A stretch of 64,000 bases of DNA from Dehalococcoidia bacterium. GTDB lineage: Bacteria > Chloroflexota > Dehalococcoidia > Lucifugimonadales > Australimonadaceae. The translations under genes were made by a program, and so were the position numbers. The DNA lies in assembly GCA_965247635.1 (NCBI GenBank), contig CBDFHJ010000008.1:135653-199652 (forward strand), in the 5' to 3' direction. Below are positions 2,217-46,628 of the stretch, in pieces (positions within the stretch are counted from its first letter, which is position 1; every line of letters begins with the position of its first letter). A model generated the notes under the pieces. That model was not told the origin of the DNA. It saw only the letters and a list, made by a program, of their open reading frames with translations, and did not search any database.

Positions 2217-4301
<2,085 letters not shown>

Positions 4302-4336
4302 GGGTGTCCTCAGCGGCGCTTGAGACTGCAATCCTT

Positions 4337-4555
4337 TCACATGAGATCCAGGAACTCCGCCACTGTAACGTCTGCGTCACGTATGAGGCGCCTCAACAGT
4401 CCCCTCCCGAGCTCCCTATGCCGGGGTACTGAGAGTGTAACTCGAACAGGATGCACGAGAATCATATGACTTCCCACGGTTCGTTCCCATCGGTATCCTA
4501 TACGGCGCATGGCCACCACGAACTCGTCGCCCGAGATGAGCGGCAGTGGTGGCAT
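4337..4555 (-). CDS. hicA: HicA-family toxin (type II TA mRNA interferase)
   Basis: 72 aa. ..[54 protein letters not shown] matches the HicA/YcfA pattern (GSH..., VP.H.EL..G.L..I...A). Its start overlaps the hicB stop (TGATG at 4553-4557). AT-richer than the flanks. Confidence 0.75.
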
Positions 4556-5876: not shown

Positions 5877-7073
5877 TTACGAACGAGGCGCTCCGGCCAT
5901 GGTGCGTAGCTTGCTGACCAGGCTGGCAACCGTGTCAATCACGTAGTCTACCTCCTCCTCCGTGTTCTCGGGCCCCACAGTCAAGCGGAGACTCCCTCGC
6001 GCCAATTCGGTGGACTGTCCGGTGGCCAGTAGGACGTGCGATGGGTCCAGCGAGCCCGCGGTGCAGGCACTCCCGCTGGATGCGGCGATCCCCGCCAGGT
6101 CGAGGCCCAGCAGAATGGGCTCGCCCTCCACGCCCTCGAAGGAGACATTGACGTTATTTGCCAGGCGGTCATCAGGGTGCCCGTTCAGGTGCGTATCGGG
6201 TACGCGTTCGTGGATCCCGCTTATGAGCCGGTCACGCAAGGTCTGACAGTAGCGGCTGGCCTCTTCCCGGCGACGCTCCGCCATCTCCAGCGCAACGCTC
6301 ATGCCCACGATTGCCGCCACGTTCTCGGTGCCGGCGCGGCGGTCCCGCTCCTGGCTTCCGCCCACCTGGGTGGGAGCGAAGAGCGTGTTGCGCCGGACGT
6401 AGAGCAGGCCCACGCCCTTGGGGCCGTTGAACTTATGCGCGGATAGACTCAGCATGTCCACGCCCAGCCGTTGCACGTTGATATCCAGAAGCCCAGGCGC
6501 CTGCACGGCGTCGGTGTGCATGACGATGGTCCGCTTTAACGCTTGGGCCTTGGCCTTTACCAGCTGCGCGACCTCCGCCACCGGCTGAATTGTGCCGATC
6601 TCGTTGTTGGCCAGGATAAGGCTGACCACCGTGGTCTCCGGCGTAACGGCCGCCTCGACGTCTACCGGGTCAACCATGCCGCGGCGGTCGACGGGAACGT
6701 AGGTGACGGAGAAGCCTAGCTGCTCCAGGAGGTGGCCGCAGTTCAGCACCGCGTGGTGTTCCACCGAGGAGGTGACGATGTGGCGTCCGGTAGCCTGGAG
6801 GGCTACGGCCGCGCCCATCAGCGCCGCGTTGTCGGACTCGGTGCCGCCGCTCGTGAAGATGACCTCACCGGTCCGGGCGCCCAGGACCTTCGCCACGCGC
6901 TCCCGTGCTTCGTCCAGGCCCTGGCGGGCCTGCTGGCCGAGGGTGTAGATGCTGGAAGGGTTGCCGTAGGCCAAAGAGAAGTAGGGCTGCATGGCGGCCA
7001 GCACTTCAGGCGCCACCGCCGTAGTGGCGGCGTGGTCCATATACACTAACGGTCTGCCTTGGGCTGCCATCAA
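5877..7073 (-). CDS. cysteine desulfurase, NifS/IscS class (PLP-dependent)
   Basis: 398 aa. ..[14 protein letters not shown]....YGNPSS.Y..G.., PLP-lysine motif [18 protein letters not shown], and active-site loop SSGSACTAG near the C-terminus. Confidence 0.9.
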
Positions 7074-7231: not shown

Positions 7232-7339
7232 CCCGTTCATGGTTCGACAAGCTCACCACGAACGGGGAAAATCCGCTCCTCCTGAGCTGGTCGAAGGGTG
7301 AGCGGATTATGTCCCGACAGGTCGGGACTGACTCACCAC
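7232..7339 (+). repeat. modular palindromic intergenic repeat (MITE/REP-like), copy 1
   Basis: CCCGTTCATGGTTCGACAAGCTCACCACGAACGGGG...GAGCGGATTAT-GTCCCGACAGGTCGGGAC-TGACTCACCAC. It shares end modules and the GTCCCGAC..GTCGGGAC hairpin (7311-7328) with 46454-46628, which is in the opposite orientation. Confidence 0.7.
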
Positions 7340-7355
7340 CCACGGTGGGGGTGAC

Positions 7356-7991
7356 ATGAGACTGCTAAGGCTTGGTGTCGTCGTGGTCGTCTTTGGGGCT
7401 TTGATGGTCATGGCGGTGGCCTGCGCGGGCGAGGAGGACGGGCCGCTGCCCACCGACACCGCGACGACGATTGACTCCCTCCAGGACCTGGACAGCCTGC
7501 ACGACCTGCGTGCGGCGTTCCTTCAGGACGAAGGCAGCACGCGGTTGGTGCTGCTCGTGTCGCCGACCTGACCCGCCTGCACAGCGGGGGCCCGGTGGGT
7601 CCAGAAGGAGGTCCTCGATAAGCATCCCGATGCCGATCTCCAGGTCTACGCGGTCTGGTTCAACATAATCTTTAGCGACAGTGTGTCTAGGTGGTCTGCG
7701 GACGTCTTCACCGACCCCCGCGTGACCGAGTATTGGGACCAGGAACGCTTGGCGGGTAAGTGGTTCGCCGAAAACCTGGGCTTTTCTTTCGGACCGATCG
7801 CGTGGGATGTCTACTACCTGTTCGGCCCCGACGCTGCCTGGGAGGAGGAGCCGGCACCCCTGCTCGACGCCGGATTCACCATTCTTGGCCGCCGGGAGCA
7901 GCTTCTGTCCCACGTTGAGGGACTTATTGTGCAGTCGCCGTCCGGGGGTAGCGTGGCCGGCATCGAGTCCGTGGGTCCTCAGCGCGGGTAA
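7356..7991 (+). CDS. thioredoxin-fold lipoprotein interrupted by a single in-frame TGA at the CxxC position (candidate selenoprotein U-P-A-C, or pseudogene)
   Basis: ORFs 7356..7571 and 7683..7991 share a frame. The only stop between them is TGA at 7569-7571. Signal/lipobox MRLLRLGVVVVVFGALMVMAVAC, then ..RLVLLVSPT-TGA-PAC-TAGARWVQKEVL..VYAVWFNI..AWDVYYLFGP. Confidence 0.45.
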
Positions 7992-8020
7992 CGCTCTGGT
8001 ACGCGTCGTGGGCCTGGTGC

Positions 8021-8902
8021 CTACGTGGCGGAAGCCGTCGCGTAGGCCATGAGCTTGTAGGCCAGCTTCGCCGCGGTATAAGCGCACGCCTCCGGCCCTT
8101 CGGCGGGCGCCAGCTCCATGATGTCGAGGCCGACGATGCGACGCTCCCGGGCTACCGCCCGCAGCAGGCCTAGCACCTCCCACCAACCCATGCCGCCAGG
8201 CTCCGGCGTGCCCACGGCGGCCATGAACGAGGGGTCGAACACGTCCAGGTCCACGCTCACGTAAACGTTGGCCGATAGGTGGGCGATGAGGGCCTCGGCG
8301 TCGGAGATGGGCGCCGCCTCCCGGAGGAACATGGGGACAGCCCCCGCTTCGACCAGACGATGCGCCTCTTCGTGCACGCTGCGCACGCCCACCACCACTG
8401 CGGGGGCCCACTCCAGCATCCGGCGAGTGGCGCAGGCGTGACTATACCGCGAGCCCTGGTACTCGTCGGCCAAGTCGGTGTGCGCGTCCAGCACCAACAC
8501 GCTGAGGTTGTCGTGGTGCTGGGCCACCGCGCGGACCGCGGCCGACGTTAGGGAGTGGTCGCCTCCCAGCATGCACACCAACTTCCCCTGCGCCACGTAC
8601 CAGTCCACGGCCTGAGTGACCCGGGCAAGCATCTGCTCGGGGTCCCCGACGACGGGTTCTAGCGCCTGGGCCGTGTGGATGCCGACGCCGCAGGGAGAGA
8701 GTCCCAGCTCCGGGTCGAAATCCTCCATCTGATGGGAGGCACGCAGGATGGCGTATGGACCGTCCCGGGCGCCCGCCTTGTAGCTGGTGGCGGCGTCGTA
8801 GGGTACGGGCAGCACCACGACGCGGCTGCGGGCCAAGTCGTGGGCTTCGGGTGGAAGCGCCAGGAAGGTATGAGGGGTAGTTGGCCAACACGGGTCCCGC
8901 AC
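8021..8902 (-). CDS. speB: agmatinase / arginase-family ureohydrolase
   Basis: Mn-ligand motifs of the arginase family: GGDHSLT, LVLDAHTDL, SVDLDVFDPS..GTPEPGG, and IVGLDIMELAP. Confidence 0.85.
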   Translation of the reverse strand: MRDPCWPTTPHTFLALPPEAHDLARSRVVVLPVPYDAATSYKAGARDGPYAILRASHQMEDFDPELGLSPCGVGIHTAQALEPVVGDPEQMLARVTQAVDWYVAQGKLVCMLGGDHSLTSAAVRAVAQHHDNLSVLVLDAHTDLADEYQGSRYSHACATRRMLEWAPAVVVGVRSVHEEAHRLVEAGAVPMFLREAAPISDAEALIAHLSANVYVSVDLDVFDPSFMAAVGTPEPGGMGWWEVLGLLRAVARERRIVGLDIMELAPAEGPEACAYTAAKLAYKLMAYATASAT

Positions 8903-13217: not shown

Positions 13218-14564
13218 ACGACATCAGGCGGCGACCTTCTCAGCCGTTGATTCAATGGCGATTCCATCCGCATACTGTGCACCGAGATAGACGTCTTCGA
13301 TCAACTCAGGGGCCTTCAGACGCCTGAAGCGCTGTTCGGCGACCATCAACATTTTCCAGATCACCGCTATCGCCCGATCGACCCTCTTGTAGCGCTTGGC
13401 GGCATCGGTCCGAAGCCTGAGGGCCGCGAAGGGTGATTCTACCGGGTTCGTCGTGCGAAGGTGCCCCCAGTGCTCCTTTGGGAAGTCATAGAAGGTGACC
13501 ATGCGGTCCCAGTCCCGCTCCAAGGCCTCTGAGGCCGCCTCGTAGGAATGGTCGCCGCACCACCTGGTGAACACCGTCCTGAGCCGCTCAGCCTCTGTCC
13601 GAGTCGGCGCGTAGGGGATAGTACGCAGCATGAGCTTGGCCTGGTCCTGTTGTCGCTTTGGAAGCTTGGCGAGCACGTTTACGATCTTGTGGTTCCAGCA
13701 GCGTTGCTCTGCCGCCTGCGGATAGACGTTGCGCAGAGCTCCCCAGATGCCCAGGTGTCCGTCCCCAACCACCAGCCTCGGGCACTCCAGCCCGCGGCGC
13801 CTCATGTCCCTGAGCACATCGGACCAGTTCTCTGTGGACTCCCTGTATCCGGGAACAGCGCTCACCACCACCTTGCTCCCGTCGCTCAGGGCCGCCACCA
13901 CCACCAGTACTGCCGCCTTCTCCTTCTCAAGACCAGCCTTGACGTAGACTCCATCCATCCACATGTAGACCACTTCCAGGTCATCTAGGGGCCGGCTGCG
14001 CCATTGGGCAAGCTCATCGTTCCACTTGGACTTCAACCGGGCCACCGTGCTCGCCGATACCGGTGCGTCCTCTCCCAGCAGCCCCCGCAAAGCCAGATCG
14101 AAGTCGCCTTCGGATAGACCGTGCAGGTACAGCTCGGGGATCAACTCAGCAACCTTCCTGGTCCTGTTGACGAACAGCGGCAGCAGCCGGCTCTCGAACT
14201 GCTCCTCGGTATCGCGGACTCGCGGCCGCCTCAGCTGTATCGTTCCCGAACTCAGCGTAAGCCTCCGGGCTCTGCCGTATCCGTTCCGATAGCCGGTATC
14301 ATTGTCCGAGTCGGATCTGAGCGCCGACTTCGCCCTTCCCAGAAACGCCGTCACCTCCTCCTCCAGCAACTCCTGGATCAGCCTCTGGACCTGGCTTCGC
14401 ACCCAATCCTCCAACTGCTCCCACTCCGGCCTTGACTCCGACCTACTCTCAGTGCTTTCCTTCCTCATGGGCGGTCTATCTCCTCTCTTGGGCCTCGAGC
14501 CCGTGTTGTTCAGAGAGAGGGTACACCGCCTGACTGTTTACACACTTTTTGAAGATACCTCCTC
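13195..14564 (-). mobile_element. IS256-family insertion sequence (about 1.37 kb)
   Basis: A single mutator-type transposase ORF. Imperfect terminal inverted repeats share GGAGGT..TCAA.A.GTGTGTAAAC..TCAGGCGG (left 13193-13231; right, reverse-complemented, 14526-14564). It is flanked by the 10-bp direct repeat CGAGCGGTGG. Ends are uncertain by about 2 nt. Confidence 0.8.
13224..14468 (-). CDS. IS256-family (mutator-type) transposase
   Basis: 414 aa. ..GYRNGY..R.L....G.I.L..PR.R.., ..YLHGLS..D....L..LLG......S...V.RL...W..E...W..R.L...EVVY.W.DG.Y.., ..VV.D.G..G...A....YP.A..QRCW.HK..NVL..LP.. are hallmark IS256 blocks. Confidence 0.9.
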   Translation of the reverse strand: MRKESTESRSESRPEWEQLEDWVRSQVQRLIQELLEEEVTAFLGRAKSALRSDSDNDTGYRNGYGRARRLTLSSGTIQLRRPRVRDTEEQFESRLLPLFVNRTRKVAELIPELYLHGLSEGDFDLALRGLLGEDAPVSASTVARLKSKWNDELAQWRSRPLDDLEVVYMWMDGVYVKAGLEKEKAAVLVVVAALSDGSKVVVSAVPGYRESTENWSDVLRDMRRRGLECPRLVVGDGHLGIWGALRNVYPQAAEQRCWNHKIVNVLAKLPKRQQDQAKLMLRTIPYAPTRTEAERLRTVFTRWCGDHSYEAASEALERDWDRMVTFYDFPKEHWGHLRTTNPVESPFAALRLRTDAAKRYKRVDRAIAVIWKMLMVAEQRFRRLKAPELIEDVYLGAQYADGIAIESTAEKVAA

Positions 14565-14574
14565 CGAGCGGTGG
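14565..14574. repeat. right copy of the direct repeat flanking the IS
   Basis: CGAGCGGTGG, identical to 13185-13194. Confidence 0.8.
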
Positions 14575-14595
14575 GTTCTCCGGGCGACAACGGCT

Positions 14596-14979
14596 ATGGT
14601 GGTCGGGCTCATGGCCGTCTCGGGCGCACTCCACCTCACGAGCGTTGAATCGGTGAGCGCTAACGAGAAGGCGGGGGCAATCAGCGTTGAGATGAAAAAT
14701 AGCACCTTCGAGCCCGCTCAGCTGACGGTGCCGGCCGGCAAGCCCGCCAAGTTCGTTGTCAGGAACCGTGATCTCACCGTGCACACGTTCACCATTGAAG
14801 CGCTTGGTATCGATGTCAAAGTGCTGCCGGGCAGCGAGGTACTGATCGAGTTGTCCTCACCTCCCGCGGGCACCTACGTGTACGCATGCACCTATGGCGG
14901 TGGGTTTAGCCTGCCACTCCATAAGCCAGAGGTTGAGAGCGAGCCCAGCGGCCTTCAGATAACGGCACGCTCGTGGTGA
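14596..14979 (+). CDS. cupredoxin-like domain protein; 5' region probably disrupted by the IS
   Basis: ..ISVEMKNSTFEPAQLTVPAGKPAKFVVRNRDLTVHTFTIEALGIDVKVLPGSEVLIELSSPPAGTYVYAC.. follows the EfeO/plastocyanin-like cupredoxin pattern. The same frame is open upstream across the restored empty site (..GERWVLRATTAMVVGLMAVSGAL), so the native start may lie left of the IS. ATG 14596 is the first start right of the IS. Confidence 0.4.
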   Translation: MVVGLMAVSGALHLTSVESVSANEKAGAISVEMKNSTFEPAQLTVPAGKPAKFVVRNRDLTVHTFTIEALGIDVKVLPGSEVLIELSSPPAGTYVYACTYGGGFSLPLHKPEVESEPSGLQITARSW

Positions 14980-26433: not shown

Positions 26434-26895
26434 TTACTTACTGCCCTTCTGGTACTCCGCGACGGCGTCTTGGAGGGTGCTCCACGCCAGCAGCGCGCAC
26501 TTGATGCGGATGGGGAACCGTTGGACCCCCTCTAGGGCCATCAGCTCGCCTAGCGCCTCCTCCTGCTCGGCGGTGGGCGCTTGGCCCTGCATCAAGCCCT
26601 TGAACAGCTCAGCCAGCGCCTCCGCATCCGGTAACGTCTTCCCTTTGAGCAGCTCGCTCATGATGGACGCCGACGCCTGACTGATGGCGCACCCCTGGCC
26701 GTCGACCCCCACCTCCGCGATGTGGCCATGGGCGTCCAGTCCAGCCGTTAGCACTACCTGGTCGCCGCAGAAGGGGTTGAAGCCCCTGGCCGACAGGTCC
26801 GGCGCGCTCACCAGGCCGTGGTTACGGGGGCTGCGGTGGTGGTCCAGGATGATCTCCTGGTAGAGGTCGTCAAGTCCGTCGAGTTGCATTGCCAA
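26434..26895 (-). CDS. sufU: SUF-system Fe-S scaffold/sulfur-transfer protein SufU (NifU N-terminal-like)
   Basis: ..LYQEIILDHHRSPRN.G.....N.FCGD.V.L......G.I......GQGCAISQASASIMSELLKGK.. shows the three conserved Cys in the SufU pattern. Confidence 0.85.
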   Translation of the reverse strand: MAMQLDGLDDLYQEIILDHHRSPRNHGLVSAPDLSARGFNPFCGDQVVLTAGLDAHGHIAEVGVDGQGCAISQASASIMSELLKGKTLPDAEALAELFKGLMQGQAPTAEQEEALGELMALEGVQRFPIRIKCALLAWSTLQDAVAEYQKGSK

Positions 26896-28144
26896 AGAAC
26901 CTCAGGGCCTCCTTGAGCCCGTCGACGAGGATGTCCACCTCCTCCTCCGTGTTGTAGAGGTAGAAGCTGGCCCTCCCGGTGGCGGGGACCTCCAGCTTCC
27001 GCATCAGGGGCATGGCGCAGTGGTGGCCGGCCCTGATGGCGATCCCCCAATGGTCCAACACCGTCCCGATATCGTGGGGGTGGATATCGCTGGCGTAGAA
27101 GGACACTACGCCGCCACGCTTTTCCAAGTCCGTCGGGCCGTAGGTGACCACCTCTTCCAGCTCCCGGAACCGCTCCAGGGCGTAGCCGGTCAGCTGCACC
27201 TCGTGCTGGCGGACGCGGTCCATCCCCAGGCTGCTCAGGTAGTCCACGGCCGCGCCCATGGCGATGGCGTCGGCGATGTTGGGCGTGCCCGCCTCGAACC
27301 GCATGGGGAGGTCGTTCCAATCGGCCCTGTCCAGCCACACCTCCTTCACCATCTCACCGCCGGTCAGAAAGGGGTCCATCTCCTCCAGCACCGACCTCTG
27401 CGCGTAGAGCACCCCGATGCCCGTGGGCCCGCACATCTTGTGGGCGGAGAAGGCCATGAAGTCGCACTCCAGGTCCTGCACGTCCGTCGGAACGTGAGGC
27501 ACCCACTGGGCGGCGTCGAGCAGCACGGCCGCGCCCACCCGGTGCGCCGCCGCCGTCAGCTCCTTGGCCGGCGTGATGGTGCCCAACACGTTGGACATCA
27601 TGGTCATGGCCAGCAGGCGCGTCTTCGAGGTCAGCAGGCGGTCTAGGTCCGTTAGGTCCAGCGTGAACTCCTCGGTGATAGGAATAAACCGCAGGACTGC
27701 TCCCGTCTGCTGGGCGACCTGCTGCCAGGGCACCAGGTTGCTATGGTGCTCCATCTCCGTAAGCAGGACCTCATCGCCCGCCTTGAGGTTCGTGCTGGCC
27801 CACGTCTGCGCCACCAAGTTGATGGCCTCGGTGGTGTTCCGGGTCCAGATGACCTCCTCAGGCGACGGCGAGTTGATGAACCGCGCCACCTTGACCCGCG
27901 CCTCTTCGTACTTGTCGGTGGCCTCCACGCTCAGGGTATGGACGCCCCGGTGCACGTTGGAGTTGTACCCCTCGTAGTAGTCCGTCAACGCCTGGATGAC
28001 GGACCGCGGCTTCTGGGACGTAGCCGCGTTGTCCAGGTACACGAGCGGCCTTCCGTTCACCGTCCGCGACAGGATCGGGAACTCCTGACGGATGCTTGCC
28101 ACGTCCAGGGGAGCTGGCGGGTCGGGTTGACGGCTGGTCGCCAT
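26870..28144 (-). CDS. sufS: cysteine desulfurase SufS (group II)
   Basis: ..FPIL.R.VNG.PLVYLDNAATSQKP..V..A...YY...NSNVHRGVH.LS.., PLP-lysine motif FSAHKMCGPTGIGVLY, and RAGHHCA. I prefer ATG 28144 (AAGGAGG plus 4 nt upstream, inside the sufD 3' end) over 28186. Confidence 0.9.
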   Translation of the reverse strand: MATSRQPDPPAPLDVASIRQEFPILSRTVNGRPLVYLDNAATSQKPRSVIQALTDYYEGYNSNVHRGVHTLSVEATDKYEEARVKVARFINSPSPEEVIWTRNTTEAINLVAQTWASTNLKAGDEVLLTEMEHHSNLVPWQQVAQQTGAVLRFIPITEEFTLDLTDLDRLLTSKTRLLAMTMMSNVLGTITPAKELTAAAHRVGAAVLLDAAQWVPHVPTDVQDLECDFMAFSAHKMCGPTGIGVLYAQRSVLEEMDPFLTGGEMVKEVWLDRADWNDLPMRFEAGTPNIADAIAMGAAVDYLSSLGMDRVRQHEVQLTGYALERFRELEEVVTYGPTDLEKRGGVVSFYASDIHPHDIGTVLDHWGIAIRAGHHCAMPLMRKLEVPATGRASFYLYNTEEEVDILVDGLKEALRFFGNATRRT

Positions 28145-28157
28145 GGGGCCTCCTTGC

Positions 28158-29486
28158 TTAGAGCTCCCGGAGCCTTGTGTGCACAAGCTGCTCCAGGTAG
28201 GCGCGGAACGGCACGTGGGTGATGGTGGCGGGCACCTCGCTGACGAAGCCGGAGGTAAGCAGCTCGCGGGCGCCCAGGTCGTCCAGGCCGCGACTCTTCA
28301 GGTAGAAGACAGCCTCCCGGTCGAGCTGGCCGATGGCGGCGCCGTGGTTGCACTTGACGTCGTCGGCGTAAATCTCCAGCTGCGGCTTGGTATCCACCGC
28401 CGCGCCCTCCGATAGCAGCAGCGTCTTATTGACCTGATGGGAGTTGGTCTTCTGGGCGTTGGGCCGGACCAGCATCTTCCCGCCGAAGACCACGTGGGCC
28501 TTGCCGCTGAGCACGCCTTTGTAGAGCTCGTCGCTACTGGTGTTGGGCACCGCGTGGTCAACAAAGGTGTTGTAGTCCACGTGCTGCTGCTCGTTCAGCA
28601 GATAGAGGCCACGGAGCTCGGCCCTGGCGCCCTCCTCGTGGAGCAGGACGTTGATGTTGTTGCGGACGAGGCCGCCGCCGTGGTCCACGAGCAGTGACGT
28701 GTACCTACTCTCACCCTCCTGCCGCACCTCGATGGTGGCGACGTGGAAGGAGCCGGCGCTTTCGGTCTGGAGCTTGTAATGGTCCAGCCTTGCTCCGGGT
28801 TCCAGGACCACCTCCGATACCGCGTTGGTGAAGTAGCGTCCACCCACGGGTCCGATATACGACTCGATGACCGTTGCCCTGGACTCCCTGTCCATTAGGA
28901 TAAGCACCCGGGGGTGTGAGACGGTGTCGGTAGGGGTGGCCGTGGACAGGAAGATGAGCTGAATGGCAGCGGAGAGGGTGGTGCCTGAGGGCACGTGCAG
29001 GAAGCCCCCGTCCTGTACGAACGCCGTGTTCAGCGCTGTGAAGGCGTGGCCGTGATAGTCGGCGTACTTGCCCAAGTGCCGGCCAACCGGGCCCTTCAAT
29101 GCGTCCCGCAGATTACACAGGTGCACCTCAGGCGGCAGCGCCTCGGTGGACGAGTGCTCCCGACTGTAGCGGCCGTTCACGAAGACCAGGCGGCTGCCAT
29201 GCGTTCCCGCAAAGGCGTGGTGGTCAATCTCGGAGGCCGGCACGTGGATAGCCTGCGGCTCGTTTAGCACGCTAAAGGGGACCTTGGCCAAGGGGCTTAC
29301 GTCGGTGTACTTCCACTCCTCGTTGCCCCTGCGCACCACCGGGAACCCCAGGTCGCTAAAGCGGGAGATCGCCTCCCTGCGCAGCTTCCGTAGCCAAGCG
29401 GGGTCATGCTTGAACCCATCGCGCTCCAGGCTATCGAAGGTGGATAGGTACGATGCCTCTTGGGTTGCTCGCGCACGCTGGGTCAT
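28158..29486 (-). CDS. sufD: Fe-S cluster assembly protein SufD
   Basis: 442 aa between sufC and sufS. The C-terminal beta-helix region ..G.A..VF.GKM.V...AQKT...Q.NK.LLLS..A.VDTKP.LEIYADDVKC.HGA..G.L.. is typical of SufD. Confidence 0.85.
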   Translation of the reverse strand: MTQRARATQEASYLSTFDSLERDGFKHDPAWLRKLRREAISRFSDLGFPVVRRGNEEWKYTDVSPLAKVPFSVLNEPQAIHVPASEIDHHAFAGTHGSRLVFVNGRYSREHSSTEALPPEVHLCNLRDALKGPVGRHLGKYADYHGHAFTALNTAFVQDGGFLHVPSGTTLSAAIQLIFLSTATPTDTVSHPRVLILMDRESRATVIESYIGPVGGRYFTNAVSEVVLEPGARLDHYKLQTESAGSFHVATIEVRQEGESRYTSLLVDHGGGLVRNNINVLLHEEGARAELRGLYLLNEQQHVDYNTFVDHAVPNTSSDELYKGVLSGKAHVVFGGKMLVRPNAQKTNSHQVNKTLLLSEGAAVDTKPQLEIYADDVKCNHGAAIGQLDREAVFYLKSRGLDDLGARELLTSGFVSEVPATITHVPFRAYLEQLVHTRLREL

Positions 29487-29514
29487 GCCTTGGTGTCCTC
29501 GCGGATGCTGGCCA

Positions 29515-30279
29515 TTACGCGCTGGGGTGCGCGGCTCCGCTGCTCTCCACCCACTCGTAACCCTTCGCCTCCACCTCCATGGCCAGCTCCTTACCGCCGG
29601 TCATGGCGATACGGCCGTCGATGAACAGGTGCACCACGTCGGGGATGACATAGCTAAGGATGCGTTGATAGTGAGTGATCAGCAGGATGGCCCGCTCTGG
29701 GCTGCGCGTCTTGGATATGCCGTCGGCCACCTCGCGCAGCGCGTCGATGTCCAGGCCGGAGTCCACCTCGTCCAAGATGGAAAGCTTCGGTTCCAGCACA
29801 ACCATCTGGAGGACCTCGCTACGCTTCTTCTCACCGCCGGAGAACCCGTCGTTGACCGACCGTTTTAGCAGGGCAGGGTCCATCTCCACGGCTTTGAGCG
29901 TGCCCTTGAGCTGTCGGTCAAACTTCAAGACGTCGATCTCGTCCAGGCCTTTGCTCTTGCGTATCGCGTTGTAGCCCGCACGCAAGAAGTGGTCGAGGCG
30001 CACCCCTGGCACCTCCACGGGGTGCTGGAAGGACAGGAAGATGCCCGCCCTGGCACGCGCCTCTGGAGGCATCAGTAGCAGGTCTTGCCCCTCGTAACGT
30101 ATCGATCCCTTGGTGATGCGGCAGGCGGGATGGCCGGTAACGACTCTCGCCAAAGTGCTCTTCCCCGAGCCGTTGGGGCCCATGATGGCGTGGAGCTCGC
30201 CCGCGTTCACGCTCAGGCTCACCCCCTTGAGGATCTCAACGTTATCGACAGTGACGTGCAGGTCACGGATTTCGAGCAT
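29515..30279 (-). CDS. sufC: Fe-S cluster assembly ATPase SufC
   Basis: MLEIRDLHV.V......L.GV.L.V..GE.HAIMGPNGSGKSTL (Walker A), LSGGEKKR-like FSGGEKKRSEVLQM, and ILDEVDSGLDIDAL. I prefer ATG 30279 (GAGGAA 7 nt upstream) to 30294. Confidence 0.9.
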   Translation of the reverse strand: MLEIRDLHVTVDNVEILKGVSLSVNAGELHAIMGPNGSGKSTLARVVTGHPACRITKGSIRYEGQDLLLMPPEARARAGIFLSFQHPVEVPGVRLDHFLRAGYNAIRKSKGLDEIDVLKFDRQLKGTLKAVEMDPALLKRSVNDGFSGGEKKRSEVLQMVVLEPKLSILDEVDSGLDIDALREVADGISKTRSPERAILLITHYQRILSYVIPDVVHLFIDGRIAMTGGKELAMEVEAKGYEWVESSGAAHPSA

Positions 30280-30307
30280 TACACCATTCCTCATAGGGCG
30301 TGCGGGG

Positions 30308-31765
30308 CTAGCCTATGGCCCCTTCCAGGTTCAGCGCCAGCAGCCGGTTCGCTTCGACCGCGAACTCCATGGGCAGCTTGCTGAACACGTCCTTGCAGAA
30401 GCCGTTGATGATGAGCGAGTTGGCGTCCTCGGCCGACAGGCCCCGCTGGCTGCAATAAAACACCTGCTCTTCGCTCACCTTGGAGGTCGACGCTTCATGC
30501 TCCACCGTGGAGCTGTTGTTGTGCACCTCCAGGTAGGGCGTGGTGTGCGCGCCGCACTGGTCGCCTAGGAGCAGGGAGTCGCACTGGGTGAAGTTCTTAG
30601 CGTTCTCGGCCTTGGGCATGACCTTGACCAGGCCCCGGTAGGTGTTGTTGCCGTGGCCTGCCGAGATGCCCTTGGCGATGATGGTGCTGCTGGTGTTCTT
30701 GCCGGTATGGGTCATCTTGGTGCCGGTGTCGGCTTGCTGGTAGAGCTTGGTGAGCGCCACGGAGTAGAACTCACCCACGGAATTGTCGCCCTGGAGGATG
30801 ACGCTGGGGTACTTCCAGGTGATGGCCGACCCCGTTTCCACCTGCGTCCACGAGATATGAGAGTTTCGTCCCAAGGCCTTCCCGCGCTTCGTCACGAAGT
30901 TGAAGACGCCACCCTTGCCCTCGGCGTCGCCGGGGTACCAGTTCTGAATGGTGGAGTACCTGATGTCCGCGTCGTCCAACGCCACCAACTCCACCACGGC
31001 CGCGTGCAGCTGGTTCTGGTCGCGGATGGGAGCGCTACATCCTTCCAGGTAGCTCACGTAGCTGCCCTCGTCGGCGATGATGAGCGTCCGTTCGAACTGG
31101 CCGCCGCTCTCCTGGTTGATGCGGAAGTAGGTGGAAAGCTCCAGGGGGCAGCGCACCCCCTTGGGGATGTAGCAAAAGGAGCCGTCCGAGAAGACGGCGG
31201 AGTTCAGGGAAGCGTAGAAGTTGTCGGTGTAAGGCACAACCGAGCCGAGGTATTTTCTGACCAGGTCAGGGTGCTCCTGAACGGCCTCCGACATGGAGCA
31301 GAAGATGACGCCGTATTTCGCCAGCGTCTCCTTGGCCGTGGTCATCACGGACACGCTATCGAAGATGGCGTCCACCGCTACACCCGCCAGACGCTTCTGT
31401 TCCCCTAGCGGAATGCCCAGCTTCTCGAACGTCTCCAGCAGGTCCTTGTCCACCTCGTCCAGGCTGGCGAGCTCCGCCTTGGGCTTAGGCGCTGAGTAGT
31501 AGATGATGTCCTGGAAGTTGATACGTGGGTAAGAAACGTTCGCCCACGTAGGCACCTGATCCTTGTCCAGCAGGGTCTTCCAGTGTCTGAAGGACCGCAG
31601 GCGCCACTCCAGCATCCACTGGGGCTCACCCTTCTTGGCGGAGATCCAACGGACGATCTCCTCGTTAAGCCCAGGAGGCGCGGTGTCCGCTTCGATGTCC
31701 GTGACGAAGCCGTACTTGTACCCCTGGTCTGCCAGGTCCTTCACTGCTCTGTTCTTGGTGGTCAT
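30308..31765 (-). CDS. sufB: Fe-S cluster assembly scaffold SufB
   Basis: 485 aa. ..YKYGF.T.IE.......GL.E..V..IS..K.EP.WM...RL..F.., ..T.QNWY.G.....GG..NFVTKRG.., ..HEA..SK.SEEQ.FY...RG.S.E.A... No intein-sized insertion. Confidence 0.9.
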
Positions 31766-37263: not shown

Positions 37264-38649
37264 TTACTGGGCCCGGAGCGCTTCCGCCGCGGCCATCCCG
37301 CTGCGCACCGCGCCCTCCATGGTCGCTGGCCAGCCCGTATCTGTCCAGTCGCCTGCCAGGAAGAGGTTGGCCAAGGGCGTCTTGGCCGGCAGCCGGTTCA
37401 CCGCGCTCCCCGGCAGCGACTGGAACGTGGCCTGCTGCTCCTTGACCACCACGAACCGCTCCACGGTGGCCGACCTGGCGTTGGGGAGCACCCGCGCCAG
37501 CTCCGGCACGAACAGCTCCTCCAGCGCCTGCTTGCTTATGGGCCAGAACTCCCACGCCCCACTGAGGGAGACGGTCAAGTACTGGCCTGGTCCAGCGTCG
37601 CCGGTGATCCACGACCGGTTGAACACCCACTGGACCGGGCTTTCCACGAAGGCCGCGAAGTGGAAGTCAGCCACCGGTCGGTCGTACCACACGTGCAGGT
37701 TGACGATGGGAGACCACGTGTGGCTGGACGCCGGGGCCAGCTCCGGTGCGTTGCGAAGCACCTCTGGTAGCGCGGCCAGCAGGGCGGACGGCGGCAGCGC
37801 GCTGACGTACCAATCGGCGTGAAGCACGTCGCCGCCACTGAGCCGAACGCCGGTGAGCCGCGGCCCCGCACCCGGCGTATCGTCGGTCAGCAGCTGCTCC
37901 ACCGTGCGGTCCAGCAGCAGCGTAGCGCCCCGGGCCTTGAGCCGTTCTTCCACGGCGGTCCCCATGATTTCGGAGAGCCCGGCGCGCGCGTATCCCACGT
38001 CGGCGCCGTGGCGATTGCGCAGCAGCGACTCCTGGAACACCATGAACCCCATGCTGGCGCTGACGTGCCGGGAGCTATCGTTGAGCGCCGGAACGATGAA
38101 GAGGTCCCAGAAGTTGTCGATGGCGCGCTGCGACTGTCCGTGGCGCCGCAGCCAGTCGTAGAAGCTCAAGCGTTCCAGATCCGGCCGTTCACGGTGCCGC
38201 TCCATCGCCATGCGCCCGAGGGCGGGGACGGCTCGCACCTTATCGCGCCAGCCGATGTGCGGATAGCGGAGGAAGGAGACGAGGAGGTGTAGGGGAGGGG
38301 GCAGTGGCAGCGCCGAAAGCATGCCCCGGCGGCCGTCGGGGCTGCGTACCTCGATGCGCAACGACCGTTGCCGCTGAGTGAGGTGCAGCGTGCCGATCTC
38401 GCCAAGAAAGCTCGTGTAGGCGGTGCAGCAGCCCAGAAAAACGTGTTGACCGTTGTCTACCTGCTGCCCCGTCGACCTCTCCTCGAAGGAGTAGGCGCGC
38501 CCGCCCAAGTACGGCCTGCGCTCCACGAGCGTGACCGGATGGCCCAAGGTGGTCAACCGCCAGGCAGCGGCCATGCCCGCCAGCCCGCCGCCCAAGACCG
38601 CGACGCTGCTTAGCTCTTGCTGCTGATGGGGAGGACGCTGGTAGCCCAC
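37264..38649 (-). CDS. hpnE: hydroxysqualene dehydroxylase HpnE (FAD-dependent, phytoene-desaturase family)
   Basis: ..VAVLGGGLAGMAAAWRL...GH.VTL.E.RP.LGGRA.SF.....G..VDNGQHV.LGCCT.Y..FL..IG.., C-terminal ..LAGDWT.TGWPATMEGAVRSG..AA... The start is uncertain: GTG 38649 (40-nt overlap with hpnD) seems more plausible than ATG 38775 (166-nt overlap). Confidence 0.75.
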   Translation of the reverse strand: MGYQRPPHQQQELSSVAVLGGGLAGMAAAWRLTTLGHPVTLVERRPYLGGRAYSFEERSTGQQVDNGQHVFLGCCTAYTSFLGEIGTLHLTQRQRSLRIEVRSPDGRRGMLSALPLPPPLHLLVSFLRYPHIGWRDKVRAVPALGRMAMERHRERPDLERLSFYDWLRRHGQSQRAIDNFWDLFIVPALNDSSRHVSASMGFMVFQESLLRNRHGADVGYARAGLSEIMGTAVEERLKARGATLLLDRTVEQLLTDDTPGAGPRLTGVRLSGGDVLHADWYVSALPPSALLAALPEVLRNAPELAPASSHTWSPIVNLHVWYDRPVADFHFAAFVESPVQWVFNRSWITGDAGPGQYLTVSLSGAWEFWPISKQALEELFVPELARVLPNARSATVERFVVVKEQQATFQSLPGSAVNRLPAKTPLANLFLAGDWTDTGWPATMEGAVRSGMAAAEALRAQ

Positions 38650-39488
38650 AACTTTGCGGTTAGTAGTAGTTTCTCGTGGTTGGGCAGCCGGATGCGGCCC
38701 CGGAAGACGTCGAACCCGTTGGCCTCGATACGGTCCAGCAGCCGGCTGTACAGCCCCTGTAGGACCGTCACGCACGCCCGCGACCGGACCGGCACCAACG
38801 CCGCGAGCTTCGCTCCCTGGGCGTAGTACGCGCGGGCCCGCTCCGCCTGGAATCGCATGAGCGCGACGAACTGCGCGTTGATGATACCACGCAGCAGCTC
38901 CTCCTCTGAGTAGCCGAAACGCGCCATCTCGTCCTGCGGAAGGTACACCCGGCCTCGCTCGGCGTCCTCCCGTATGTCGCGGAGGATGTTGGTGAGCTGC
39001 ATGCCCAGGCCCAGGTCCACGGCGTACTCCCTGGCCACCGGGTCCTTGTACCCGAAGATCTCCCCGCAGATGAGGCCCACCGTGGACGCCACCCCATAGC
39101 AGTACTCCCTGAGCTCTTCAAAGGTCTCGTACCGGCTCTTGGTGGTGTCTATCTCCACGCCGGAGACCAAGCTGTCGAAGAATGCCTGAGGAATGCCGTA
39201 GGTATGAGCCGCGTGCGCCAGGGCGATAAACACCGGCCCCTGGGGAGCGCCGGCGTAGGCGTCGGCCAAGGAGTCGCGCGCGCTGGCAAGCTGCTCGATC
39301 TTCTCCTGGACCGGGGCCGCGCCGTCCGCGATGTCGTCGCAAAGGCGGGCAAAGGCGTAGGCGGCGTAGATGGCCCGCCGTTTGGTGCCTGGGAGCGTGA
39401 TGAAGGCGAAGTAGAAGTTACGGGCTTCCTTGCGGGTGACCCGCTGGCAGTGTCGGTAAGCCTCTTGGAGCTCGACGGCCATGGCCAT
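38610..39488 (-). CDS. hpnD: presqualene diphosphate synthase HpnD (squalene/phytoene synthase family)
   Basis: ..AYRHCQRVTRKEARNFYFAF..LP..KR.AIYA.YAFARLCDDIADG.., and second Asp-rich region NILRDIREDAERGRVYLP. I prefer ATG 39488 (MAMAVELQEAY), 11 nt after the hpnC stop, to ATG 39551. Confidence 0.8.
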   Translation of the reverse strand: MAMAVELQEAYRHCQRVTRKEARNFYFAFITLPGTKRRAIYAAYAFARLCDDIADGAAPVQEKIEQLASARDSLADAYAGAPQGPVFIALAHAAHTYGIPQAFFDSLVSGVEIDTTKSRYETFEELREYCYGVASTVGLICGEIFGYKDPVAREYAVDLGLGMQLTNILRDIREDAERGRVYLPQDEMARFGYSEEELLRGIINAQFVALMRFQAERARAYYAQGAKLAALVPVRSRACVTVLQGLYSRLLDRIEANGFDVFRGRIRLPNHEKLLLTAKLWATSVLPISSKS

Positions 39489-39499
39489 TGCCAATAACC

Positions 39500-40390
39500 T
39501 CAGGGCCGGCCCAGCAGCCCGGCCTTGGCGGCGGTGGAGAGCATGAGCCACAACTTGCGGACCGTGGAGACCGTGGGCCGGTGGGTGAGCACGTCGTACT
39601 CCTGACGACGGATGGCCCGCAGCACGGCCATGCCGCCCTTGCTGAAGAGCGCCACGTCGATCCGTGCCTTCCCGCGCAGCATCCGCGCCAGGGGCAGGCC
39701 CTGCCGGAACAGCGCTTCGGCCCGGTCCACCTCAAAGCGCATCAACTCCCGGAACCGGTCGTCGACGACGCCTTGGGCCAGGTCCGCTTCGCCGTACGCG
39801 AAGCGTGTCATATCCTCCAGGGGAACATAGACGCGGCCCATCTCCCAGTCGCGGCGTACGTCCTGCCAGAAGTTGGCTAGCTGGAGGGCGGTGCACGTCG
39901 CGTCGGACAGGCGCTGGCGCTCCTCGTCCCGGTAGCCCAGCACGTACAGCACCATCCGTCCGACCGGGTTTGCGGAGTGGTCGCAGTAGTGGAGCAGGTC
40001 CTGGTAGGCGGGGAACCGTTGCTGGCGCTGGTCCATGCGGTTCGCCTCGATGAGCTTTCGGAACGGTTCGTCGGGGATGTCGAAGTGGTGGATCGTATCC
40101 TGAAGGGCCACCATGATGGGGTGGGTGGGTGCGTCGCCGTAGCAGCGAGTGAGCTCCTCTTCCCAGGCGTCCAAGAGCGAAAGGCGGTCTCCCGACGCTT
40201 CGTCTCCTAAGTCGTCGGTGTGCCGGCAGAAGGCGTAGACGGCGTACAGGTAGGGCCGCAGCCGTCGGGGTAGAAACCAAGAACCCACTGTGAAGTTTTC
40301 ATAGTGGGTCTTTGCGAGGCTTGTACAGTAGCGGTACGCGGAGGTGAGGTCAGGCGCAGGCGCTGCGTCAGCGCGAGGAACGGAGGACAC
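39500..40390 (-). CDS. hpnC: hydroxysqualene synthase HpnC (squalene/phytoene synthase family)
   Basis: ..AYRYCTSLAKTHYENFTVGSWFLPRRLRPYLYAVYAFCRHTDDLGDE.. (HYENF is typical of HpnC), and ..LQLANFWQDVRRDWEMGRVYVP... Confidence 0.8.
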   Translation of the reverse strand: MSSVPRADAAPAPDLTSAYRYCTSLAKTHYENFTVGSWFLPRRLRPYLYAVYAFCRHTDDLGDEASGDRLSLLDAWEEELTRCYGDAPTHPIMVALQDTIHHFDIPDEPFRKLIEANRMDQRQQRFPAYQDLLHYCDHSANPVGRMVLYVLGYRDEERQRLSDATCTALQLANFWQDVRRDWEMGRVYVPLEDMTRFAYGEADLAQGVVDDRFRELMRFEVDRAEALFRQGLPLARMLRGKARIDVALFSKGGMAVLRAIRRQEYDVLTHRPTVSTVRKLWLMLSTAAKAGLLGRP

Positions 40391-40399
40391 AGCCCCGAC

Positions 40400-40849
40400 T
40401 CACGTGCCCACGACCTGGACGACCACTTCCCGCTGGCGAGGCCGGTCGAGCTCGATGAGGAAGAGCGATTGCCACGTGCCGAGCTGGAGCTCGCCGTTGA
40501 TAAGGGGGATGGTCTCGCTGGAGCTCATGAGGAGGTGCTGGCAGTGGGCGTGGCCGTTGGGGCACTCGTCTTCGGTCATGTTCACGGTGCGGATGCTGAA
40601 ATCGTTGTGGCCGTAGTAGGCGTTTACGGGAGCGAGACGGGACAGGAACTGCTCCATGTCCCGGATGAGCAGCGGTTCGTTTTCATTGACTTTGATGGCG
40701 GCCGTGGTGTGCTTCGAGTAGATACATACCAGTCCGTCCCTAGCTCCCGAATCCCGAACATGCTCCATCACGCGTTCCGTGATGTCGATGAACTGGGGTG
40801 CGCGTTCGGTCTCCAACACGATACTAGACGTCAAAGCACGAGTAGCCAT
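40400..40849 (-). CDS. yjbQ: YjbQ/UPF0047 family protein (secondary thiamine-phosphate synthase-like)
   Basis: ..FIDIT..V......SG...GL..IYS.HTTAAI.VNENEP.L..D....L.RL.P......H......N..AH....L...S...P...G.L.LGTWQ...L.ELD.PR.R.V... It lies 9 nt upstream of hpnC. Confidence 0.8.
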   Translation of the reverse strand: MATRALTSSIVLETERAPQFIDITERVMEHVRDSGARDGLVCIYSKHTTAAIKVNENEPLLIRDMEQFLSRLAPVNAYYGHNDFSIRTVNMTEDECPNGHAHCQHLLMSSSETIPLINGELQLGTWQSLFLIELDRPRQREVVVQVVGT

Positions 40850-41100
40850 TGTGGTCTATCCTCTCTCGGGGCCAAGCGCTCCACGAGTGCCTAGCGCCAG
40901 TCTCTGACGCGAGGCACCCTAGCATAACTAGGCACTGATATCAACACCCTAGGCCGGCTTTTTTGCCGCCTCTTCGGCGTAGCGACGCCGACAGTACGTA
41001 TCAACCGCTGCGCTTCGCCCGGCCACGGCATTATACCGCCTCCGCGGCCCCTTGAGCATACCTCTCTCCACACGTTGCTGACGGCATCGTTCGTGCCGCT

Positions 41101-43227: not shown

Positions 43228-43637
43228 GCGCCAAGCACGGTGCCCATGACCGCGTACGCGATGATGGGGTAGCCGGCGTCGATGAAGAACAGCTTCAACG
43301 ACTTAAAGGCGAAGCTGTAGTTGAGGGCCAGGAAGCTGACCACGAACCCCACCCCGACGATGAGCCCGAGTACGACACCGTCCGCCGCGTCGGTGGCGCC
43401 GGCAAGCTGGACGATGACCGCCAACGATCCCGCCGCGATAAGCCAGACCACGGCCCCGGTGAGGTAGCTAACGTACATTCGCGCTTTCTGGGCCGCCACG
43501 GACTCCCGCGTTAGCCCGACCTCCTTCATCCACGGATTGGCCAGGATGCCGTACCAGGCCGCTCCCATCACGAAGCTGATCACCAACGCCACCAGCACCG
43601 CCAGGTAGTTAATGTCGCCGAACTCAATGTCCATCAT
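43218..43637 (-). CDS. DUF1761-family membrane protein
   Basis: ..INYLAVLVALVISFVMGAAWYGILANPWMKEVGLTRE.. plus three further TM segments, as in DUF1761. Its 3' end overlaps the shc start by 10 nt. Confidence 0.65.
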   Translation of the reverse strand: MMDIEFGDINYLAVLVALVISFVMGAAWYGILANPWMKEVGLTRESVAAQKARMYVSYLTGAVVWLIAAGSLAVIVQLAGATDAADGVVLGLIVGVGFVVSFLALNYSFAFKSLKLFFIDAGYPIIAYAVMGTVLGAWQ

Positions 43638-43717
43638 TGCACCTCAATAAAGATAGTGTTCCTTTGCCCATTCCCCTCAGTCGCGCTAGTCACGCTGGAG
43701 CTCGTCGGAAGCAGTGC

Positions 43718-45543: not shown

Positions 45544-45559
45544 CGTCGTTGGGGAGGCC

Positions 45560-45925: not shown

Positions 45926-46038
45926 CTATTACCGGGCCGCCCAGTACTCCGCCTCCGGAGGTGCATGGGCAGTTATGTCTTTTACACACCTTAGCACGCG
46001 CCAAACTCTTATAGACACGGGACCGCTCGCTCAGGTAA

Positions 46039-46371: not shown

Positions 46372-46453
46372 GGTTACCTCGCAATCATGGTCTCTCGTAC
46401 TAGTAAGCTAGAGGTGTGTTAAGTACATAATTCCCGGTGCATGAGTCGCGAGA

Positions 46454-46628
46454 GTGGTGAGGCAGTCCCGACAGGTCGGGACATAATCCGCTCATCCTTA
46501 GACAAGCTCTCCGACTTCGTCAGGAGTCTCGATGAGCGAAGCATCATCGGACAGGACGAGCGGATTTCCCCCGTTCGTGGTGAGCCCTTCGACCTTGCTC
46601 AGGACAGGCCTGTCGAACCATGAACGGT
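46454..46628 (-). repeat. modular palindromic intergenic repeat (MITE/REP-like), copy 2 (longer variant)
   Basis: The reverse complement begins CCGTTCATGGTTCGACA.. and ends ..GAGCGGATTATGTCCCGACCTGTCGGGACTGCCTCACCAC, matching both ends of 7232-7339. Extra internal modules are present. The core hairpin is at 46465-46482. Confidence 0.7.

Follow-up and report, generated by a model that had tools for sequence, protein, structure and literature searches.

The window analysed here is a 64,000-nucleotide stretch of contig CBDFHJ010000008.1 from a Dehalococcoidia bacterium of the Chloroflexota. Its gene at positions 7356–7991 of the forward strand is, in all probability, a true selenocysteine (Sec), or SelB-dependent, recoding gene, in which the in-frame UGA at 7569–7571 is read through. 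On sequence grounds, the encoded protein belongs to a new, large selenoprotein family of the known UxxC, thioredoxin-fold, hairpin-decoded kind. The explanation that best covers the findings as a whole, an exported Sec-containing thioredoxin-fold protein of a mercury-linked family, is considered likely. Sec decoding was called plausible in an initial annotation of the window; it is now strongly favoured, and the UGA is regarded as a Sec codon, not as the mark of a pseudogene, because the TGA column is conserved among homologs, Cys (TGC) is the minority form, purifying selection acts past the TGA and a covarying hairpin follows it. The standard comparative signature of a selenoprotein consists of a conserved TGA, a minority of Cys forms and selection on both sides of the codon (PMC9312934).

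The coding sequence comprises 211 sense codons, with Sec at codon 72, and terminates with the TAA at 7989–7991; it is defined by its frame, composition, homologs and omega, the ratio of nonsynonymous to synonymous substitution rates (dN/dS). The sole stop inside this frame is the TGA at 7569–7571, and the open reading frames (ORFs) 7356–7571 and 7683–7991 lie in one frame, so translation bears out the single frame of about 211 codons with a lone in-frame TGA that had been described initially. The read-through translation is MRLLRLGVVVVVFGALMVMAVAC-AGEEDGPLPTDTATTIDSLQDLDSLHDLRAAFLQDEGSTRLVLLVSPT-(TGA)-PACTAGARWVQKEVLDKH..., and around the site it reads ...LVLLVSPT-(TGA)-P-A-C-TAGARWVQKEVL..., with U72 as the first residue of a U-P-A-C redox or metal-binding motif (7569–7580). 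The composition of 7356–7991 is coding-like, the G+C fractions at the first, second and third codon positions being 0.66, 0.46 and 0.77 in a sequence of 64% G+C. An antisense ORF of 348 codons (7365–8411) fails the same composition filter, has no domain match and was rejected as a shadow ORF. A scan of the 64 kb found no other internal TGA flanked on either side by coding-like sequence. Elsewhere in the window, TGA works as a normal terminator, ending 14 of 44 genes; together with the single internal candidate, this rules out a genome-wide reassignment of UGA.

A homology search retrieved 13 proteins. Most of them have 116–124 residues and start just past the CxxC column, as in 'MCKAGARWVQKE...', and two full-length homologs read ...LVSPTCPACAGG... 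(SPTCPAC). The DNA upstream of the short homologs contains an ORF of 74–84 codons that is in the same frame and ends with TGA at the window's column. Four divergent homologs carry the motifs SPT*PVC (loci L001 and L002), SPT*SVC (L005) and SPT*STC (L006). Scans of species-representative genomes and metagenomes added 120 further loci; counted over the window and 128 loci, the Sec column contains TGA 124 times, TGC six times (L018, L026, L029, L041, L043 and L046) and TAA or TAG never. The family motif around the recoded codon is S-P-T-U-x-x-C. The best hit among the species-representative genomes is 46% identical to the window protein. Loci of the TGA form occur in at least six phyla, and the labels of the metagenome-assembled genomes (MAGs) among the genome hits are Anaerolineales/Chloroflexota, Actinomycetota, Acidobacteriota (Blastocatellia, Thermoanaerobaculia), Gemmatimonadota, Planctomycetales and Clostridia/Heliobacteriaceae.

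An exhaustive profile search yielded 1,786 clusters (50% identity) at E ≤ 1e-3 and 656 at E ≤ 1e-10. Of the best 150 representatives, those with the strict core motif comprise 74 proteins truncated directly behind the Sec column and 21 full-length ones (about 3.5:1, or approximately 78% Sec). Nearly all full-length representatives read SPTCxxC (proteins P0002, P0003 and about 15 further); the exceptions are SPTWPVC, whose TGG is one mutation from TGA (P0085), and a redox-dead SPESxAA subgroup. The variants of the Sec column found among P0085, P0023, P0008, P0123 and P0144 include, besides this Trp form, a Gly form (SPTGVEC) and the SPESxAA form with neither Sec nor Cys; two SPESxAA members are C-terminal domains of 430–450-residue proteins without any other recognisable domain.

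Downstream of the TGA, comparison of the window with L049, the closest intact relative (81% identical there), gave an omega of 0.28 at a synonymous divergence (dS) of 0.41, and comparison with L007 gave 0.38. The dN/dS upstream of the TGA relative to L049 was unreliable owing to a linker indel and was left unused. The alignment of homologs proposed in the initial annotation thus shows TGA or Cys conserved at the column and purifying selection on the downstream half (omega 0.28–0.38).

A hairpin resembling a Sec insertion sequence (SECIS) is located at 7588–7602 of the forward strand. Its stem, GGGCC (7588–7592) paired with GGUCC (7598–7602), begins 17 nt past the UGA and closes the loop CGGUG (7593–7597). 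The hairpin was analysed in a gapless alignment of 70 distinct sequences of the window's clade that starts 3 nt ahead of the TGA and runs to 54 nt past it. RNAalifold applied to these sequences returned one helix, which corresponds to 7588–7592/7598–7602 of the window. In a slightly extended helix, 94.1% of cells are paired and none of 500 column shuffles reaches the covariation score; when the 3′ strand of the hairpin is slid by 1–3 nt, only 29–54% of cells pair. The second pair, G-C in the window and C-G in most relatives, occurs as C-G, G-C, U-G, U-A, A-U and G-U by way of synonymous third positions of Gly and Val codons. At the fourth pair, C-G gives way to U-A by two coupled replacements, Ala to Val and Val to Met. 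Loop nucleotides G26, U28 and G29 (the U of UGA being 1) are invariant. Distant members of the family have another peptide after UxxC, and the hairpin is still present in other registers. Register B2 (positions 13–18/26–31, n = 10) has 93% of cells paired, which 0 of 1000 shuffles reach, and keeps its pairs through amino-acid-changing swaps: Arg(CGG)...Glu/Asp(GAx), Trp(UGG)...Lys(AAA) and Gly(GGG)...Gln(CAA). A third register, found in Gemmatimonadales, is fully paired and invariant. The bacterial SECIS combines a short stem with a loop whose conserved G lies some 20 nt past the UGA (PMC4605307), and the predicted hairpin, 17–31 nt after the UGA, agrees with this published geometry. A comparison with Rfam gave no match at the gathering or E-value thresholds. 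Two hairpins had been put forward in the initial annotation and both exist, but their fates differ. The first is the element described above, conserved with compensatory changes; the second, an 8-bp pairing of 7570–7577 with 7594–7601, is the minimum-free-energy fold of the window sequence alone, forms in 3 of 70 relatives and was rejected as a SECIS.

The read-through protein has no Pfam match at E ≤ 1 and no NCBIfam match at E ≤ 0.1, and the family profile found nothing significant among PDB sequences. In public sources, the proteins of the family are labelled 'hypothetical protein' or left unnamed. An AlphaFold2 model was built on the full-length Cys-form homolog P0002; its mean pLDDT (predicted local distance difference test) is 81.6, exceeding 90 across most of the core. 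The order of elements is helix, β1 (56–61), CPAC (64–67), α1 (66–80), β2 and so on, with CPAC between β1 and α1. A Foldseek search of the PDB with this model found DsbF/DsbE of M. tuberculosis, ResA of B. subtilis, CcmG, pneumococcal Etrx1/Etrx2 and ScoI, the top hits having an E-value of about 2e-6 and a TM-score of about 0.66 on the target. According to the model, the predicted fold is a TlpA/ResA/DsbE-type thioredoxin fold, making the protein a structural relative outside any defined sequence family. The placement of the TGA at the CxxC site of a thioredoxin fold, suggested initially, agrees with the P0002 model and the Foldseek results, though no sequence model detects the fold.

The N-terminal export signal, MRLLRLGVVVVVFGALMVMAVAC, is encoded at 7356–7424 (forward strand); its type was judged by eye. 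The N-terminus has a basic n-region and a 16-residue hydrophobic core, followed by ...M-A-V-A-C. In the family, a hydrophobic run of at least 12 residues is present in 91 of 102 distinct complete N-termini, and Actinomycetota-type and Gemmatimonadota members often end the signal with a lipobox-like sequence (...STAC, ...GAAC, ...LLSC). Many proteins of the Actinomycetota type show the pattern ...A(S/T/G)AC, and ...LLSC and ...STAC are clearer motifs than that of the window protein. The sequence features leave export of the window product well supported. Cys23 (7422–7424) is a possible lipidation site; M-A-V-A-C resembles a lipobox, although with A at −3, and A-V-A would serve signal peptidase I just as well, so that lipidation at Cys23 and release after A-V-A would fit equally well. 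The lipoprotein signal of the initial annotation therefore stands with respect to export, while its lipobox is one of two equivalent choices. An exported Sec oxidoreductase had also been thought unusual there; exported and lipoprotein selenoproteins have, in fact, been predicted before.

The link of the family to mercury comes from its genomic context. Neighbouring genes were counted by tblastn of representatives over 113 non-redundant loci, many of them short. The most frequent neighbour is a 292-residue unknown protein immediately downstream in loci of the Actinomycetota type (22 loci), followed by a MerR-family regulator (19), a CopZ-N-terminal 'CC' metallochaperone (NF047645, 108 and 122 bits, cutoff 100; 18), MerA (TIGR02053 equivalog, 590 bits, cutoff 454; 10) and MerB (6). 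Of the loci, 27 extend at least 2.5 kb to both sides, and in 19 of them MerA, MerB, the CopZ-type chaperone or a regulator of the MerR type is encoded no more than 5 kb away. Hg-MerR is the model that the regulators match best, though below its cutoff; they have exactly three cysteines, which in Gemmatimonadota are Cys 77, 112 and 121, followed by Pro. The Hg(II) ligands of MerR are Cys79, Cys114 and Cys123, with spacings of 35 and 9 residues, unlike the shorter loop of CueR (PMC4551924); Cys 77/112/121 of the Gemmatimonadota regulators keep this 35/9 spacing.

In the Gemmatimonadota loci L027, L030, L031 and L033, the gene order is merR, a small DUF2703/thioredoxin-like ORF, MerT and the Sec protein, which thus occupies the position of merP. 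MerT was recognised by PF02411 with 44.7–53.5 bits in L027, L030 and L031 (cutoff 32.9), and the L033 ORF was assigned by the same CC motif alone. The order in Actinomycetota-type loci is merB, merA, a small hydrophobic ORF, the Sec protein and the 292-residue protein; the small hydrophobic ORF contains an ...LCCALP... motif and was matched weakly by MerT and MerE. L001, from assembly GCA_041635435.1, is the nearest relative with usable flanks (52% identical) and adjoins two merB genes and ArsR-type regulators.

Several other features of these loci were recorded. The 292-residue protein always follows the selenoprotein gene, in L011 (10473–11348) and 21 other Actinomycetota-type loci, at +387 to +1265 nt from the Sec codon; it has one N-terminal hydrophobic segment and no Pfam or NCBIfam match. 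The small protein or domain between merR and merT, found in L027, L030, L031, L033 and L044, reads IELVYFTGCPHV...GSPTVLVxGRDV and is weakly similar to DUF2703/Thioredoxin_3. It lies about 600–970 nt upstream of the Sec codon, also occurs as a C-terminal extension of the Sec protein in L025 and L028, and may be another unannotated accessory component of mer operons. L010 (4826–5326 and 5926–6452), L056 and L093 have two Sec paralogs per operon, with a CopZ-N-terminal 'CC' gene between them and a MerR-family regulator first.

Domain fusions point in the same direction as the gene neighbourhoods. In L044 and L045, the domain follows MerT in one reading frame. MerT has a three-helix topology, and the fused domain would sit outside the membrane. 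A signal peptide and an HMA domain precede the domain in the Sec form L021 and the Cys forms L018 and L026, PF00403 scoring 66.6 bits in L021, and P0048 contains two copies of the domain and an HMA domain. P0126, encoded at L129 in the NCBI MAG GCA_044343465.1, has no signal peptide; it reads MAMSDSAQAVETIELIELESIEELAARF...LLLLSPT-TGA-PVCIKGARRVQ..., has the TGA and a register-A hairpin, and runs into MerA. The MerA part reaches 516.7 bits (cutoff 454), and its last residues are ...LSCCAG. The domain of L129 takes the place of NmerA, since it is directly N-terminal to a true MerA, where an HMA-type NmerA normally sits. In P0054, a 571-residue fusion with the family domain, residues 453–532 weakly match NF049942, 'DF family (seleno)protein' (29.8 bits, cutoff 70).

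U-x-x-C is proposed to be a two-ligand Hg(II) site because of the merP-like position, the MerT fusion, the HMA fusion and the replacement of NmerA. In the proposed mechanism, UGA would be read as Sec72 with the help of the hairpin, giving a 211-residue product; the N-terminal signal would direct it to export, after which it would be anchored by a lipid at Cys23 or set free by cleavage behind A-V-A. The TlpA/ResA/DsbE-type domain would place U72-P-A-C75 at the junction of the first strand and the first helix, and on the outer side of the cytoplasmic membrane, the selenol/thiol pair would capture Hg(II) or a different thiophilic metal. The next carrier would be the vicinal Cys pair of a MerT-type transporter, located in its first helix (outside), and MerA would receive the metal from there; inside the cell, the acceptor of the domain's metal would be the C-terminal Cys pair of MerA. 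The domain would thus be a selenium-containing, thioredoxin-fold functional analogue of MerP and NmerA. Compared with a thiolate, a selenolate is expected to bind Hg(II) more tightly and to exchange faster.

That the family handles mercury or soft metals appears moderately likely. For the window's copy the same role is quite conceivable, at slightly less than an even chance; its role is less certain than that of the family because it stands alone beside a NifS-like gene. The broader proposal is that the Sec thioredoxin-fold domain took over the Hg(II) role of MerP/NmerA in soil and sediment Actinomycetota, Chloroflexota, Acidobacteriota, Gemmatimonadota and others, and that the orphan copy of the window serves as a stand-alone envelope scavenger for mercury or soft metals; it is an evenly balanced possibility.

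A number of points weigh against this interpretation. The SECIS stem is quoted as 6–8 bp (PMC4605307, PMC9312934), while the invariant stem found here has only 5 bp; 42 of 70 sequences add a sixth, the C-G closing pair. The hairpin is situated inside conserved coding sequence, so its conservation is partly protein-driven. The contrast in folding energy between Sec and Cys forms (−11.4 versus −8.6 kcal/mol) is modest and, with six Cys forms, too weak to rely on. The modelled protein P0002 is a Cys form 44% identical to the window protein and not the window protein itself. In L007 and L008, the closest relatives, one nucleotide is deleted directly ahead of the TGA, which is either an assembly error or the sign of a very young pseudogene. 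The metal-binding claim is drawn from genomic context and fusions, and no MerA, MerT, MerB or MerR gene is found near the window copy, whose neighbours encode a NifS-like desulfurase, an arginase-family protein, AdoMet decarboxylase and CinA. Finally, Pfam scans of about 50 substantial ORFs in the 64-kb window and a tRNA search found no selA, selB, selD or tRNA-Sec, nor any tRNA at all.

Of the alternative explanations, the one closest to the proposed mechanism accepts a genuine selenoprotein and differs in biochemical role only. U-x-x-C would be a thiol-disulfide (selenenylsulfide) oxidoreductase site like those of ResA, CcmG, TlpA and Etrx, not a metal ligand; the protein would keep extracytoplasmic cysteines (of MerT, MerP and HMA proteins) reduced or repair oxidised or metal-damaged envelope proteins. 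The closest solved folds all belong to extracytoplasmic disulfide reductases, and the known thioredoxin-fold selenoproteins with UxxC are regarded as redox proteins (PMC13188914). A redox role would also suit the window copy with no mer genes nearby and the approximately 30% of well-flanked loci that have no metal gene within 5 kb. It does not readily account for the domain at the merP position after merT, for its fusion to MerT or for the signal-less form that replaces NmerA on a true MerA. NmerA is a metal hand-off module and not a reductase. Moreover, no CcdA- or DsbD-type partner turned up among the conserved neighbours, in counts that involved no search aimed at one. An oxidoreductase function in place of metal binding is accordingly considered unlikely, though by no means negligible.

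A second alternative concerns the amino acid inserted. The UGA would be recoded to Cys (or Trp) by a SelB-like factor and a tRNA-Sec-like tRNA-Cys(UCA), or by near-cognate read-through. The selC* genes for tRNA-Cys(UCA), found beside a second selB copy, do exist, and one of these tRNAs read UGA as Cys in E. coli (PMC5389517). Such a SelB-like system would likewise use the hairpin, P0085 has TGG (Trp) at the Sec column, and any Sec machinery of the window's genome would have to lie outside the sequence at hand. The flanks of 41 genome-derived related loci contain neither tRNA-Sec nor Sec-machinery genes; this absence, as in the window, says little, since such genes usually lie elsewhere in the genome. 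However, selC* has been reported in anaerobic Firmicutes, Thermodesulfobacteria, Nitrospirae and Proteobacteria, which are not the main host phyla of the family, and a true tRNA-Sec has been reported in Actinobacteria and Chloroflexi (PMC5389517). It is also hard to explain why a costly UGA and hairpin would be kept in about 78% of members and six phyla if TGC sufficed. Recoding to Cys or Trp is thus highly improbable, and decoding in the window's own organism would be SelB-dependent, with Sec as the inserted residue.

According to a third explanation, TGC mutated to TGA only recently, or the TGA is an error of sequencing, and no downstream half is produced. A mutation or base-call error had been held in the initial annotation to explain the same data. 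TGC and TGA differ in one base, and the frameshift of L007 and L008 lies only a few bases upstream of the codon. The presence of TGA in the same column of 124 loci from many phyla, never replaced by TAA or TAG, contradicts this view, as do the selection downstream and the covarying hairpin. In L007 itself, the defect is a single T lost in a contig covered about 2x, and the sequence downstream is still conserved. In L007 (295–310) and L008, one T of a TT run is missing (GTGT-GCCCACCTGA, compared with GTGTTGCCCAGCTGA in L049), leaving the upstream part out of frame; both have a C-C mismatch in the second stem pair and a conserved remainder of the gene, and they come from two ENA assemblies of about 2x coverage. 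A pseudogene or error has a negligible probability for the window copy and, judging by the comparison of loci, is already refuted at the level of the family. Equally negligible is the notion of two genes, of which the first would encode an exported peptide of 71 residues up to the TGA and the second a protein of its own, about 102–139 residues long, from a start downstream: public gene callers do annotate relatives as genes of 74–84 and 116–124 residues, but the thioredoxin fold spans the TGA with β1 (LVLLVSPT) before it and α1 after it, Cys-form homologs consist of one polypeptide, a separate downstream piece would be left with half an active site and no export signal, and the called downstream starts vary in position and have no conserved ribosome-binding site context.

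The Sec protein of the mercury-linked family can be compared with several known systems. With TlpA, ResA, DsbE (CcmG), DsbF and Etrx1/Etrx2 it shares the predicted fold and a dithiol-type motif at the β1/α1 junction and, as in the TlpA/ResA/DsbE class and Etrx, the predicted location, exported and putatively membrane-anchored or lipid-modified. Unlike the TlpA/ResA/DsbE class, the family is missed by the sequence models of the superfamily, has Sec for the first Cys in most members, possesses motifs of its own (S-P-T-U-x-x-C, D-x-R-V, W-D and A-W-D-V-Y-Y-L-F-G-P) and occurs in the context of mer and metal genes, not of cytochrome maturation. Sco1/ScoI, of which ScoI is among the fold matches, is a precedent for a membrane-anchored thioredoxin fold in metal binding and delivery; Sco has CxxxC and a His ligand and binds Cu, whereas the window family has UxxC and no conserved His ligand was identified in it. 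MerP and NmerA are matched, in relatives of the window copy only, in operon position (merR-merT-X) and fusion position (X-MerA); the domain's x-x-spaced two-ligand motif would suit linear Hg(II) coordination, and the domain is also fused to HMA. They differ in having the ferredoxin-like HMA fold with GMTCxxC, while the window family is thioredoxin-like, with selenium as one of its putative metal ligands. HMA is present in the window family only as a separate fused domain (L021, P0048), and the window copy lies outside any mer operon.

A 2026 review listed about 100 known or predicted prokaryotic selenoprotein families, every one linked to a model of Pfam, NCBIfam or CDD (PMC13188914). The predicted UxxC families of its Table 1 comprise Trx, Grx, a Prx-like thiol:disulfide oxidoreductase, the thiol:disulfide interchange protein PF13098, DsbA-like and DsbG-like proteins, Redoxin PF08534, 'thiol-disulfide isomerase-like' cd02966 and SaoT (PMC13188914). 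These proteins likewise have Sec in place of the N-terminal Cys, Cys-form homologs and a hairpin right after the UGA, and some are exported. The window protein matches none of their Pfam or NCBIfam models; only the two CDD-defined entries (cd02966, TlpA-like) are left as possible matches. Metal-handling selenoproteins include a MerT-like 'putative mercuric transport protein' (PF02411), the HMA-type NF041115, HgcA/HgcB, the SAO system and Csac_0668 with CopZ-N-terminal CU. Here, too, Sec occurs in proteins believed to come into contact with mercury-like metals, and a 'CC' relative of the CopZ-N-terminal type is the frequent neighbour noted above; the families and folds of these selenoproteins differ from those of the window protein. 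In the portions of the literature covered by the search, no thioredoxin-fold Sec protein is described at the MerP or NmerA position or in mer operons, and selenium as a mercury ligand in mer systems is possibly a new functional twist.

Upstream of the gene, a σ70-like promoter match, TCGACA-17-GAAAAT, is located at 7244–7272 (forward strand) and is a consensus match only; the promoter scan gave two promoter-like sites compared with 0.0 expected in shuffles. Downstream of the promoter-like site, direct reading of the 5′ leader revealed a perfect 18-nt palindrome, GTCCCGAC-AG-GTCGGGAC (7311–7328, forward strand), 28 nt before the ATG. This palindrome is a possible candidate for an operator or a leader hairpin; it has no counterpart upstream of the gene in the closest relative L007. 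A Shine–Dalgarno-like purine-rich stretch, GGTGGGGGTG, is found at 7344–7353 (forward strand), 3–12 nt before the ATG, and the same stretch is kept in L007.

The gene next to the selenoprotein gene and divergent from it encodes a NifS/IscS-like class-V aminotransferase (cysteine desulfurase; 5877–7073, reverse strand; TIGR03402, 508 bits, just under the cutoff of 531). A role as Sec-lyase partner, though tempting, found no support; the adjacency is kept in no relative, and the protein scores best as NifS/IscS and not as SclA. On the other side, the arginase-family gene (8021–8902) is convergent with the selenoprotein gene. At 2217–4340 (reverse strand), 3 kb away, the window encodes a 707-residue Thioredox_DsbH (DUF255) protein with no internal TGA and with faint NCBIfam matches, far below the cutoffs, to selenoprotein models (TsoB, Trx7/PDZ). 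A Mutator-family transposase gene (13224–14468, reverse strand), the only obvious mobile-element gene near the locus, adjoins a gene for a cupredoxin-like protein (14302–14979, forward strand). A second desulfurase is encoded with SufU and SufBCD at 26434–31765. A hopanoid cluster at 38610–47821 contains two squalene/phytoene-synthase-family genes, an amine-oxidase-family gene, a squalene-hopene cyclase gene (41101–43227) and a radical-SAM/DUF3463 HpnH-like gene (46799–47821); with FtsA, MutS2 and SufU, it may help taxonomic placement.

The family exposes a blind spot of annotation. Approximately 1,800 clusters are split into two 'hypothetical' genes with the UGA read as a stop, and there is no Pfam or NCBIfam model by which pipelines could repair them. 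It also extends the use of selenoproteins to largely aerobic soil phyla, in an exported protein. The antagonism between selenium and mercury is a long-standing theme in toxicology and geochemistry. The family offers a concrete, testable molecular link between selenium and mercury detoxification, in the form of a Se/S pair where mer operons place the dithiol of MerP or NmerA. If the selenol does bind and route Hg(II), this antagonism would become open to biochemistry, through binding constants, transfer to MerT and MerA, and selenium-dependent resistance, with possible relevance to biosensors and soil mercury cycling. Bacteria would then be using selenium directly as a ligand for the uptake and detoxification of mercury.

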